Assembly: GCF_988242995.1 (NCBI RefSeq) | Contig: NZ_OZ547043.1 | DNA length: 64,000 nucleotides | Reading direction: 5' to 3' (one strand) | In this document: positions 46,179 to 47,316 of the stretch, piece by piece | Numbering within the stretch: the stretch's first letter is position 1 | Layout: the number at the start of each line of letters is the position of its first letter | Position numbers and translations under genes: made by a program | Notes under the pieces: generated by a model | Databases searched by the model: none | What the model saw: only the letters and a program-made list of their open reading frames with translations | What the model was told of the DNA's origin: nothing

Positions 46179-46620
46179 GAAAACCCAGTCCTTGCAAAGA
46201 TGAAGTCGAAATGCGCGATGACACACTACTGAAAGCGGAAGGACGAGTAAAGTTGCAATTAAAAGGAAATGTTATGCATAAGGATCGGTAGGGTATTCAT
46301 TTTCATTTAAAGATATTCTTGCGCTTTAATTACAAACCGCACCGGTGTTGGTGGCGTCAAAATCGCCGAGGCGTTCCCTGAAGGCCGGGGCAGCCCACAT
46401 GGATGTGGGCTGAGGGCGCGTTTTACAGGGATGTTACCTCGCGCCCGACCCGGTAGCCGCAAGGGATAAGTCGAGGGCACCGCGCAGCGGCGATTGGCCG
46501 CCCCCTGCGCGCTCCCTGCGCCAGTGACTATATGTGGCTTAACACATCAAGGAGCGCAACAGGAAGATGAATCAATATATTTAAAAAAGGCCTGACATTG
46601 CGCCAGGCCTTCTGCGTTAA

Positions 46621-47316
46621 TTAATTACGTTTTTCCAGCAGGGTCCGGTAAATCAGACCACCGATAATACCGCCGACAATTGGCACCACCCAGAAGAACC
46701 ACAGTTGTTCTAATGCCCAGCCGCCCTGGAAGATAGCAACCGCGGTGCTGCGCGCCGGGTTAACAGAAGTGTTAGTCACCGGAATACTGATTAAGTGAAT
46801 CAGGGTTAAGGCCAGACCAATAGCGATCGGCGCAAAACCAGCAGGAGCGAATTTGTCGGTTGCGCCGTGGATCACCAGCAGGAAACCTGCACTCAATACC
46901 AGTTCAACTACCAGCGCGGAAAGCATGGAATAACCGCCTGGCGAATGCTCGCCATAACCGTTAGAAGCAAAACCGCTGGCTGCCGCGTCAAAACCCGTTT
47001 TACCACTGGCAATTAAATACAGCAGCGCCGCCGCAACAATACCGCCGACAACCTGGGCAATTACGTAGCCAACGACTTCTTTTGCCGGGAAACGTCCGCC
47101 AGCCCATAAACCAATAGTGACCGCCGGGTTAAAATGACCACCAGAAATATGACCAACAGCAAAGGCCATCGTCAGAACGGTCAGACCGAATGCCAGCGCC
47201 ACGCCGGCAAAACCAATGCCTAATTCCGGGAAGCCTGCGGCCAGTACGGCACTACCACAGCCACCAAAAACAAGCCAGAAAGTACCAAAACATTCAGCTG
47301 CTAATTTTCTGAACAT
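46621..47316 (-). CDS. aqpZ: aquaporin Z
   Basis: 231 aa from [12 protein letters not shown]...; two NPA motifs (HFNPAV, SVNPAR). Confidence 0.96.

Follow-up and report, generated by a model that had tools for sequence, protein, structure and literature searches.

The 64,000-nucleotide stretch of DNA analysed here (the window; RefSeq assembly GCF_988242995.1, contig NZ_OZ547043.1) is Escherichia coli DNA, and the genes around the feature under study are arranged in the order hcp-lysO-[element]-aqpZ-ybjD, oriented as in K-12. The feature is a GC-rich, hairpin-dense element in the spacer between the lysO ATG and the aqpZ stop codon (46179-46620, 442 bp). We are confident, albeit not certain, that the element is TRIP1a, also known as the Replication Risk Sequence (RRS) at lysO (RRS-lysO), for which a function on DNA has been published in K-12, and that the copy in the window is an allele deprived of the G-quadruplex (G4) motif, most likely weakened or inactive for G4-dependent stalling. 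The genes and the element are located as follows.

43483-45141, minus strand: hcp
ATG at 46178, minus strand: lysO (= ybjE)
46329-46562, plus strand (the G-rich or 'sense' strand): TRIP1a/RRS-lysO element, 234 bp here and ~275 bp in intact alleles
46621-47316, minus strand: aqpZ, with its stop codon at 46621-46623
From 47742, plus strand: ybjD

A first-pass annotation, made from the sequence alone, had recognised a ~390-bp spacer starting at 46227. Its intergenic position between lysO and aqpZ was correct, but the start had followed an open reading frame (ORF) extended to a GTG codon, and the spacer truly starts at 46179. The perfect hairpin reported there, CAGCCCACAT-gg-ATGTGGGCTG, was located at 46391-46412 with 10 nt per arm and 100% complementarity; after folding, it takes the form of a 9-bp stem with a UGGA loop. 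Further GC-rich palindromic segments are present as had been claimed, the quoted string GGCCGCCCCCTGCGCGCTCCCTGCGCC sitting at 46496-46522, and we found more inverted repeats at 46414-46420/46440-46446, 46476-46490/46502-46516 and 46509-46518/46548-46557. The GC-rich block as a whole covers 46329-46562 (234 bp), with a GC content of 63.2% as against 50.1% in the window and 39% in both AT-rich flanks. Compared with shuffled sequences, the single-strand fold has a z-score of -2.8 for the copy in the window and -4.7 for the intact K-12 copy. The boundaries of the element (ATTACAAAC...GCGCAACA) were set from the comparison of K-12 with the inverted copy of O157 and from copy-to-copy alignments; they leave 150 bp to the lysO start, which the element precedes, and 58 bp to the aqpZ stop, which it follows. 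Within the 64-kb window, the element occurs as a single copy. Two small ORFs, 46307-46480 on the minus strand and 46494-46595 on the plus strand, were considered as coding sequences and rejected, as the copies carry 1-2-nt indels and their variation follows the base pairs.

Over its full length, the spacer in the window shares 93% identity with the lysO-aqpZ spacer of K-12 MG1655, and the element is 100% identical to that of AR_0067 except for a 41-nt gap. Homology to the K-12 TRIP1a and the position between aqpZ and ybjE/lysO, two of the features looked for in a TRIP1/RRS member, were both found in the window. In the passages of Li et al. (2024; PMC10888264) that deal with TRIP1, TRIP1a is placed at a distance of 158 bp from the ybjE start (upstream) and of 70 bp from the aqpZ stop (downstream) and counted in 3448 forward and 1255 reverse orientations, TRIP1b to TRIP1e are described at other E. 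coli loci, and a stable 'double-Y' RNA fold is predicted for TRIP1. The corresponding passages of Pham, Wood, Dunbar, Cox and Goodman (PMC10592627) name the lysO and dusC copies Replication Risk Sequences, equate them with the TRIP1 of Rudd (1999), and describe them as 222-bp GC-rich repeats, each ~650 kb from dif. The element is already described, and we do not present it as a new kind of element.

By megablast of the spacer, related sequence was found in 5,425 of the 5,426 complete E. coli genomes, at a median of 3 places per genome and a maximum of 8 (3 in K-12); a sensitive blastn search raised the maximum to 10 places per genome, the median still being 3. The part of the spacer that is repeated corresponds to ~46329-46567 of the window. 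The other E. coli loci are dusC-yohP, which holds the other nearly identical K-12 copy, putP-efeU (partial), alx-sstT, copA-ybaP and yegH-asmA. An exact-pattern scan with one genome per species recovered ~100 copies in Escherichia, Citrobacter, Enterobacter, Klebsiella, Raoultella, Leclercia, Silvania, Atlantibacter, Kluyvera and Pseudocitrobacter. Among the options left by the first-pass annotation, 'another repetitive-element family' was thus the right one: the sequence is multi-copy within E. coli genomes, present in at least 10 enterobacterial genera and already named TRIP1a/RRS-lysO. Its remark that the segment does not match the canonical REP consensus was borne out as well, given the different sequence and length, the median of 3 places per genome and the fact that no REP is annotated at this position in K-12. 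The 150-nt core also raised the historical 'RSA' repeat (150/151 bp, 6 K-12 copies; PMC5172473) as a possible identity, which is unlikely with a median of 3 places in E. coli and 3 in K-12, and given that the element is TRIP1.

The copy in the window lacks 41 nt (TTGTTCGCCAGAGCCCGGGGGTGCAGGGGGCGGCGGCGATT) that are present in the copies of K-12, AR_0067 and dusC, and the gap lies between direct repeats of GCGGCGATT (9 bp), one of which remains at the junction defined by these alignments.

46487-46495, plus strand: deletion junction with the one remaining GCGGCGATT

Lost with the deletion are the whole G4 motif, three pairs of the closing helix and, from a 12-bp hairpin (GCAGGGGGCGGC/GCCGCCCCCTGC), the 5' arm. 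The G4 motif GGGGGTGCAGGGGGCGGCGG has no match in the window at up to 3 mismatches, and the copy in the window has no four-run G2+ motif, its maximum G4Hunter score being 1.04. It is a TRIP1/RRS member by descent that lacks the feature credited with the function. A 37-mer spanning the junction, which is unable to seed a megablast match in intact alleles, was found in 106 of the 5,426 complete genomes, once in each, from varied hosts and laboratories; the deletion allele is therefore real, either recurrent or inherited, and not a quirk of one assembly. The allele is not described in the passages of Li et al. (2024) or Pham et al. that concern the element.

According to the passages of Pham et al. 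(PMC10592627) on the RRS, the G-rich strand holds the G4 motif, which stops DNA polymerases I, II and IV in vitro in primer-extension assays, and a G4 on the lagging-strand template gives rise to ssGap-seq peaks, i.e., gaps loaded with RecA and SSB. The same passages report that the RRS is conditionally essential in K-12, at least one copy being needed, and that deletion or inversion of both copies changes supercoiling genome-wide (Psora-seq). According to these K-12 experiments, the element acts on DNA: once it is unwound by the fork, the G-rich strand folds into a very stable secondary structure together with a G-quadruplex, and the folded strand, when on the lagging-strand template, stalls DNA polymerases and leaves a transient gap of up to 2 kb that SSB and RecA then occupy. 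The Ter region is flanked by the two K-12 copies, which influence chromosome supercoiling and of which at least one is conditionally essential. We judged the direction of replication from local GC skew only. The plus strand of the window has a positive skew (0.031, z 5.5 over 63.6 kb), and because of this and of the K-12 gene orientation, the G-rich (+) strand is the lagging-strand template in the window, as in K-12.

The carriers of the deletion include PCN061 and UMNF18. PCN061 keeps an intact G4 copy at dusC-yohP, and at least one G4-bearing copy is kept in 5,372 of the 5,426 complete genomes (99%); both results fit the published statement that one RRS suffices. A G4-carrying 52-mer gave no megablast match in 54 of the 5,426 genomes, in which either the copies have diverged or no G4-bearing RRS is present. 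We infer that the allele in the window is weakened or inactive for G4-dependent stalling, and that the strain depends on one or more copies elsewhere in its genome.

We aligned 94 distinct copies of the family and derived a consensus by RNAalifold, which comprises 40 pairs in 11 helices. The fold was predicted on the G-rich strand only, the pattern used for the search fixed loop 1 and part of helix P4, and the aligned copies are related, so that counts of alignment cells do not represent independent events. The architecture consists of a closing helix P1, helices P2 and P3, a junction helix P4 around two adjacent hairpins, a mini-hairpin P5 with a GNA triloop and a long GC hairpin P6; a 3'-terminal helix, P7, recognised by eye, follows. 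In the window, the parts are found at the positions below.

46358-46368, plus strand: 5' strand of P1, CAAAATCGCCG; helix 1 has compensatory changes in 5 of 8 pairs and is recovered by the minimum-free-energy fold
46385-46390, plus strand: 5' strand of P4, CCGGGG, which pairs with CCCGG at 46449-46453 and encloses both hairpins; helix 4 is 100% paired and invariant
46391-46412, plus strand: hairpin 1, with the loop AUGGAU at 46399-46404 and its GGA at 46401-46403
46414-46446, plus strand: hairpin 2, GGGCGCG...CGCGCCC, whose inner stem is ACA/UGU and whose loop AGGGAU occupies 46427-46432, with GGA at 46429-46431
46461-46470, plus strand: 3' strand of P3, AAGGGATAAG, the third conserved GGA-containing motif (AGGRATAAG), with nearly invariant columns
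46480-46490, plus strand: mini-hairpin P5, CCGC-GCA-GCGG, its triloop being of the GNA type; 3 of the 4 pairs of helix 9 show compensatory changes
46488-46495, plus strand: 3' partner of P1, CGGCGATT(TT), shortened by the deletion from 8 to ~5 pairs
46497-46508, plus strand: orphan 3' arm of P6, GCCGCCCCCTGC; the 5' arm GCAGGGGGCGGC is deleted, and the hairpin is present in the intact K-12 fold
46509-46557, plus strand: 3'-terminal helix P7, in which GCGCTCCCT (46509-46517) pairs with AAGGAGCGC (46549-46557)

Across the 94 copies, 98.4% of the cells in paired columns were paired, as against 84.3% in column shuffles and ~40% with slid partners, and none of 500 shuffles matched the observed pairing or covariation score. 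As both the fold z-scores and the pairing in 94 copies exceed the shuffled and slid controls, the GC-rich hairpin feature is more than chance. Compensatory changes were found in 25 of the 40 pairs (573 cells). G-T/U combinations are tolerated far more often (65 cells in 21 pairs) than A-C combinations (7 cells in 4 pairs), which points to one strand, the G-rich one, as the strand selected to fold; on this comparative evidence, selection appears to act on the G-rich strand folding as a single strand.

The individual helices agree with this picture. The stem of hairpin 1 covaries in 4 of 6 pairs (CCCAC/GTGGG, CCCGC/GCGGG, GCCAG/CTGGC and ACGCG/CGCGG), while the invariance of its loop is no evidence, since the loop was fixed by the search pattern. 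In hairpin 2, both inner and outer pairs covary, and the loop, which the pattern did not force, contains GGA in 93 of the 94 copies. Pair 27/120 of P3 covaries among UA, CG and GC, the variants of P5 include CCGC/GCGG, TTGC/GCAA, TCGC/GCGA and CCAC/GTGG, and helices 10 and 11, which make up P6, covary in 5 of 5 pairs. The strands of P7, a helix seen only by eye, read GCGCTCC/GGAGCGC in Escherichia, GCGCTCCC/GGGAGCGC in Klebsiella and CGTTCAC/GTGAACG in both Citrobacter and Enterobacter. A Shine-Dalgarno sequence with a tiny ORF at the 3' end (AAGGAG...ATG) was considered as well, but AAGGAGCGC forms the 3' strand of P7, and its changes across genera are matched by those of its partner; 'AAGGAG' thus belongs to a helix, and the Shine-Dalgarno reading was rejected.

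Several observations weigh against our reading of the element as a carrier of the published K-12 function. The G4 is absent from the very copy in the window, so that the published mechanism is not simply transferable to it. Over the family, 45 of the 94 copies reach a G4Hunter score of at least 1.5, namely those of Escherichia, Klebsiella, Kluyvera and Atlantibacter along with some from Silvania, and 41 stay below 1.2, namely those of Citrobacter (e.g., about 1.0) along with many from Enterobacter and from Leclercia; G4 propensity is lineage-specific rather than conserved, whereas the hairpin at that place and the GGA loops are conserved. Orientation is no more consistent: the GC skew of the flanks, taken on the G-rich strand of the element, is positive at 27 loci and negative at 34, giving no bias towards the lagging-strand template, and reversed copies make up 27% of TRIP1a and 49% of TRIP1c according to the figures on these loci in Li et al. 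(2024; PMC10888264). Outside K-12, the element is thus not reliably on the lagging-strand template. The 13 places found in one Klebsiella chromosome do not fit two sites symmetric about dif, and the strict conservation of the loops is not accounted for by a purely structural block to polymerases.

The conserved loops bring the Rfam family TwoAYGGAY (RF01731) into view, the only family matched by the element, on the plus strand and over the full length of the model, with the hairpins and closing stems in register. The scores were 28.8 bits (E 0.04) for the window, 30.6 bits (E 0.007) for K-12 and 31.3 bits (E 0.004) for Leclercia, all below the Rfam gathering threshold of 43 bits, which none of 11 further copies reached. 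The Rfam scan proposed in the first-pass annotation hence returned a sub-threshold match and nothing at the gathering threshold. By the Rfam criterion, the element would not be a member of TwoAYGGAY, but it appears to resemble one in architecture: a closing stem, a pair of neighbouring hairpins with AG between them, and loops reading AYGGAY. The closing stem P1 of the TwoAYGGAY type is supported by covariation (9 of 13 pairs in helices 1 and 2 have compensatory changes) and is shortened in the window. Loop 1 (AUGGAU) agrees with AYGGAY, but was forced by the pattern in the other copies. Loop 2 reads AGGGAU in the window, with R and not Y at position 2, and A-U-GGA-Y occurs in 14 of the 94 copies (AUGGAU in 12, AUGGAC in 2 more). 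On these grounds we tentatively entertain, as a somewhat unlikely proposal, that TRIP1/RRS is an enterobacterial branch of the TwoAYGGAY repeats, in which selection across genera would keep a strand-specific fold with two (A)NGGA hairpin loops identical to the high-affinity ligand of CsrA, and not the G4.

A further alternative, which we consider unlikely, goes beyond the resemblance and takes the element for a structured RNA akin to TwoAYGGAY, whose two GGA loops would clamp one CsrA dimer when the G-rich strand is transcribed; the transcript would titrate CsrA, or a host transcript (e.g., the dusC 3' untranslated region, UTR) would be put under CsrA control. CsrA is encoded in both Clostridiales and gamma-Proteobacteria. 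TwoAYGGAY was reported by Weinberg et al. (2010) from Clostridiales and gamma-Proteobacteria, with no function proposed; like the present element, it is multi-copy (in Psychromonas), and its loops read ACAUGGAUGU. The two loops of the element, ACA-U-GGA-UGU and ACA-G-GGA-UGU, are 30 nt apart, and both agree with the CsrA consensus obtained by SELEX (ligands evolved systematically through exponential enrichment), ruACArGGAugu with GGA in a hairpin loop (PMC5694010). The near-universal GGA of loop 2 and the 65:7 asymmetry between G-U and A-C in favour of the G-rich strand point in the same direction. The copies of O157 and Atlantibacter read CAGGAYG, in agreement with the CsrB repeat, CAGGA(U/C/A)G. 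The 'double-Y' RNA predicted in the TRIP1 passages of Li et al. (2024; PMC10888264) is likewise a stable fold.

Nevertheless, this alternative faces a number of difficulties besides the sub-threshold scores. No conserved sigma-70-like promoter was found upstream of the element, 14 of 105 copies having weak -35/-10 matches at scattered positions, and no terminator was found by consensus scan. In the window, the scan of 46100-46700 (terminator loops of up to 8 nt) detected neither promoter nor terminator. Between co-directional gene pairs, the element shows no bias, with 15 copies in sense and 15 in antisense, and transcripts of aqpZ and lysO in the window would contain the complement of the G-rich strand, in which the GGA loops are missing. 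In K-12, where dusC is b2140, TRIP1c lies sense-oriented in the dusC 3' UTR, as it does in K-12-like strains. The K-12 data of Potts (2017), obtained by cross-linking immunoprecipitation sequencing (CLIP-seq) of CsrA, list no peak for dusC or ybjE, although repeat elements are frequently dropped from such data as multi-mappers, and they mark the change in dusC half-life from 3.25 min (wild type) to 1.74 min (csrA mutant) as not significant. In addition, G-T is also the best-tolerated mismatch in folded single-stranded DNA, so that the asymmetry is no proof of RNA. On the 'structured RNA' option of the first-pass annotation, the evidence is divided: a conserved, strand-specific fold exists, but no conserved promoter or terminator was found and the sole experimental function on record acts on DNA.

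The distribution of the copies bears on a different alternative, namely that the family is a selfish, non-autonomous mobile repeat, whose fold and loops serve its own spread, e.g., through a single-stranded intermediate and a putative enzyme. The resident copies would then be passengers and the effects on replication side effects of a very stable structure, a view that is compatible with the other readings and that we regard as possible, although the balance is clearly against it. It is attractive in that copy number varies among hosts, from 1-10 in E. coli and 3-6 in Citrobacter, Leclercia and Silvania to 13 in one K. pneumoniae chromosome; that presence, absence, truncation and both orientations are seen at one locus; that copies are nested among REPs, with one tandem duplicate in Klebsiella; and that, among 70 spacers, those between convergent genes are preferred (36/70) and divergent promoter regions avoided (4/70), with no constraint on orientation relative to transcription or GC skew. 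Moreover, internal deletion derivatives are frequent, including the copy in the window, TRIP1b and that of E. coli LI60C3. On the other hand, the copies compared showed neither terminal inverted repeats of more than ~7 nt nor a target-site duplication. A classical miniature inverted-repeat transposable element was rejected for the same reasons, the only match being ~7 nt of TTGCGC(T)/(A)GCGCAA in some copies. No transposase is known to be associated with the element, and the search of a phage collection gave no match to it; some matches in a plasmid collection are to mislabelled records as large as chromosomes (up to 5.4 Mb), and no transposase context was seen among the matches examined, which did not include the smaller plasmid records. 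Throughout E. coli, the loci are syntenic and stable in the account of TRIP1 by Li et al. (2024; PMC10888264), and the conditional essentiality and genome-wide effects on topology in the RRS passages of PMC10592627 argue for a host function, at least in K-12.

We made a number of observations on single copies and lineages. The yegH-asmA spacer constitutes a sixth TRIP1-like locus, outside the TRIP1a-e treated in the passages of Li et al. (2024); the full copy found there in ~42 complete genomes belongs to an Enterobacter-like subfamily and has a REP after it, and most genomes carry a 5'-truncated relic that has neither P1 nor the two GGA hairpins. The K. pneumoniae copies are embedded between REPs, and one locus has two tandem copies 437 bp apart. 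A ~60-nt unrelated module (CAAAATTGCCGGGAGCAATTTTG...GGCCCCGAAGGGGTGAGCCCC) follows the 3' strand of P2 in four copies (Silvania, Enterobacter, Leclercia and E. whittamii) and may be another small repeat nested in the element. The Citrobacter copies share an extra conserved AT-rich 5' extension of ~100 nt, with only weak promoter-like hexamers, which is partly recognisable upstream of the lysO copy of K-12 and of the window (~46290-46328, GTTTTCATTTAAAGATATTC). The LI60C3 copy is an inverted element of the O157 type with a large internal deletion of both hairpins, its spacer being 320 bp, and the annotation of O157:H7 F8092B has aqpZ as a pseudogene, interrupted by an internal stop. Near-identical copies in metagenome-assembled genomes labelled Desulfacinum, Sporobacter termitidis and 'Proteobacteria bacterium', as well as in a 583-bp low-coverage Bacillus contig, look like bin or assembly contamination and not like the true distribution.

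The same comparison of loci settles the last option of the first-pass annotation, a regulatory leader for aqpZ or lysO. The placement close to both genes and the highly structured nature of the element would suit a cis-regulatory leader or riboswitch of lysO, or a 3' element of aqpZ. However, the strand under selection is antisense to both lysO and aqpZ, and, with K-12 and the window as the reference, O157:H7 has a precise inversion of the lysO-aqpZ element (an inverted segment of 276 bp, ATTACAAAC to GCGCAACAA), the inverted orientation also occurring in other strains; both orientations are found among strains at dusC-yohP as well. The same element stands beside unrelated genes elsewhere, such as dusC, alx and yegH, and pcaC, sitD and yeiP in other genera, and Rfam gives no riboswitch match. 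aqpZ has a terminator-like hairpin of its own, likely intrinsic, on the minus strand at 46587-46611 (AAGGCCTG/CAGGCCTT, with a 9-nt loop and then a T run), which begins 10 nt past the aqpZ stop and is separate from the repeat; its loop exceeds the 8 nt allowed in the terminator scan, which therefore missed it. Because of the orientation polymorphism and the multi-locus distribution, the leader is already refuted, and we give it practically no credence.

As found, the element is ordinary: the repeat has a name, and both its occurrence and its place in E. coli are on record. Three things seem to us worth passing on: the G4-deleted allele, the conserved fold with its GGA loops and likeness to TwoAYGGAY, and the non-conservation of G4 and orientation. 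A natural allele that deletes exactly the G4, and that occurs in over a hundred complete genomes, offers a direct natural test of the published mechanism, and the comparison across genera separates a conserved fold with GGA loops from a G4 propensity that is not conserved and an orientation that is not tied to the direction of replication; taken together, they make the published mechanism directly testable. The likeness to TwoAYGGAY connects an orphan Rfam motif with an element that has an experimental phenotype. If TRIP1/RRS were genuinely a branch of TwoAYGGAY, the biology of the RRS would have a loop-specific partner, either CsrA on a transcript or another binder of the folded single strand; alternatively or additionally, the TwoAYGGAY 'RNA' would really be a replication-gap or topology element at the DNA level. 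If so, the G4-deleted allele (2% of complete genomes) would be a ready test of the G4 versus the hairpin fold.

Compared with known systems, the element shares with REP/BIME and ERIC(IRU) an intergenic, GC-rich and palindromic nature and a location mostly downstream of genes, and its Klebsiella copies are interleaved with REPs. REP/BIME and ERIC(IRU), however, are units of 35-127 bp with a single hairpin and tens to hundreds of copies, whereas TRIP1 has another sequence, ~270 bp, several helices and 1-13 copies. With CsrB/CsrC and the CsrA SELEX ligand it has in common GGA loops closed by ACA/UGU, at a spacing that one CsrA dimer can bridge; it differs from CsrB/CsrC in having 2-3 sites instead of 9-22 and in being a repeated element instead of a dedicated single gene, and neither a promoter or terminator in the consensus scans nor a K-12 CLIP-seq peak for dusC/ybjE indicates a sponge of the CsrB/CsrC type. 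The likeness to TwoAYGGAY is closer, comprising the closing stem, the two-hairpin junction, the A-Y/R-GGA-Y loops, the ACA/UGU closing pairs, the multi-copy nature and the occurrence in gamma-Proteobacteria; the enterobacterial elements are nevertheless much more GC-rich, have P2/P3, P5, P6 and P7 in addition (~120 nt more on the 3' side) and usually carry AGGGAY in loop 2, and the demonstrated activity of the E. coli element is on DNA rather than RNA. With TRIP1/RRS, as portrayed in the passages cited above, the element in the window shares the locus, the sequence (93%), the K-12 orientation, the GC content (62-65% reported versus 63% here) and the predicted double-Y fold. The published RRS consists of two symmetric copies and a few extra ones in the passages on it, which the yegH-asmA locus, the ~ten genera and the up to 13 places per chromosome exceed, and the copy in the window differs from it by the 41 nt that include the G4 motif.

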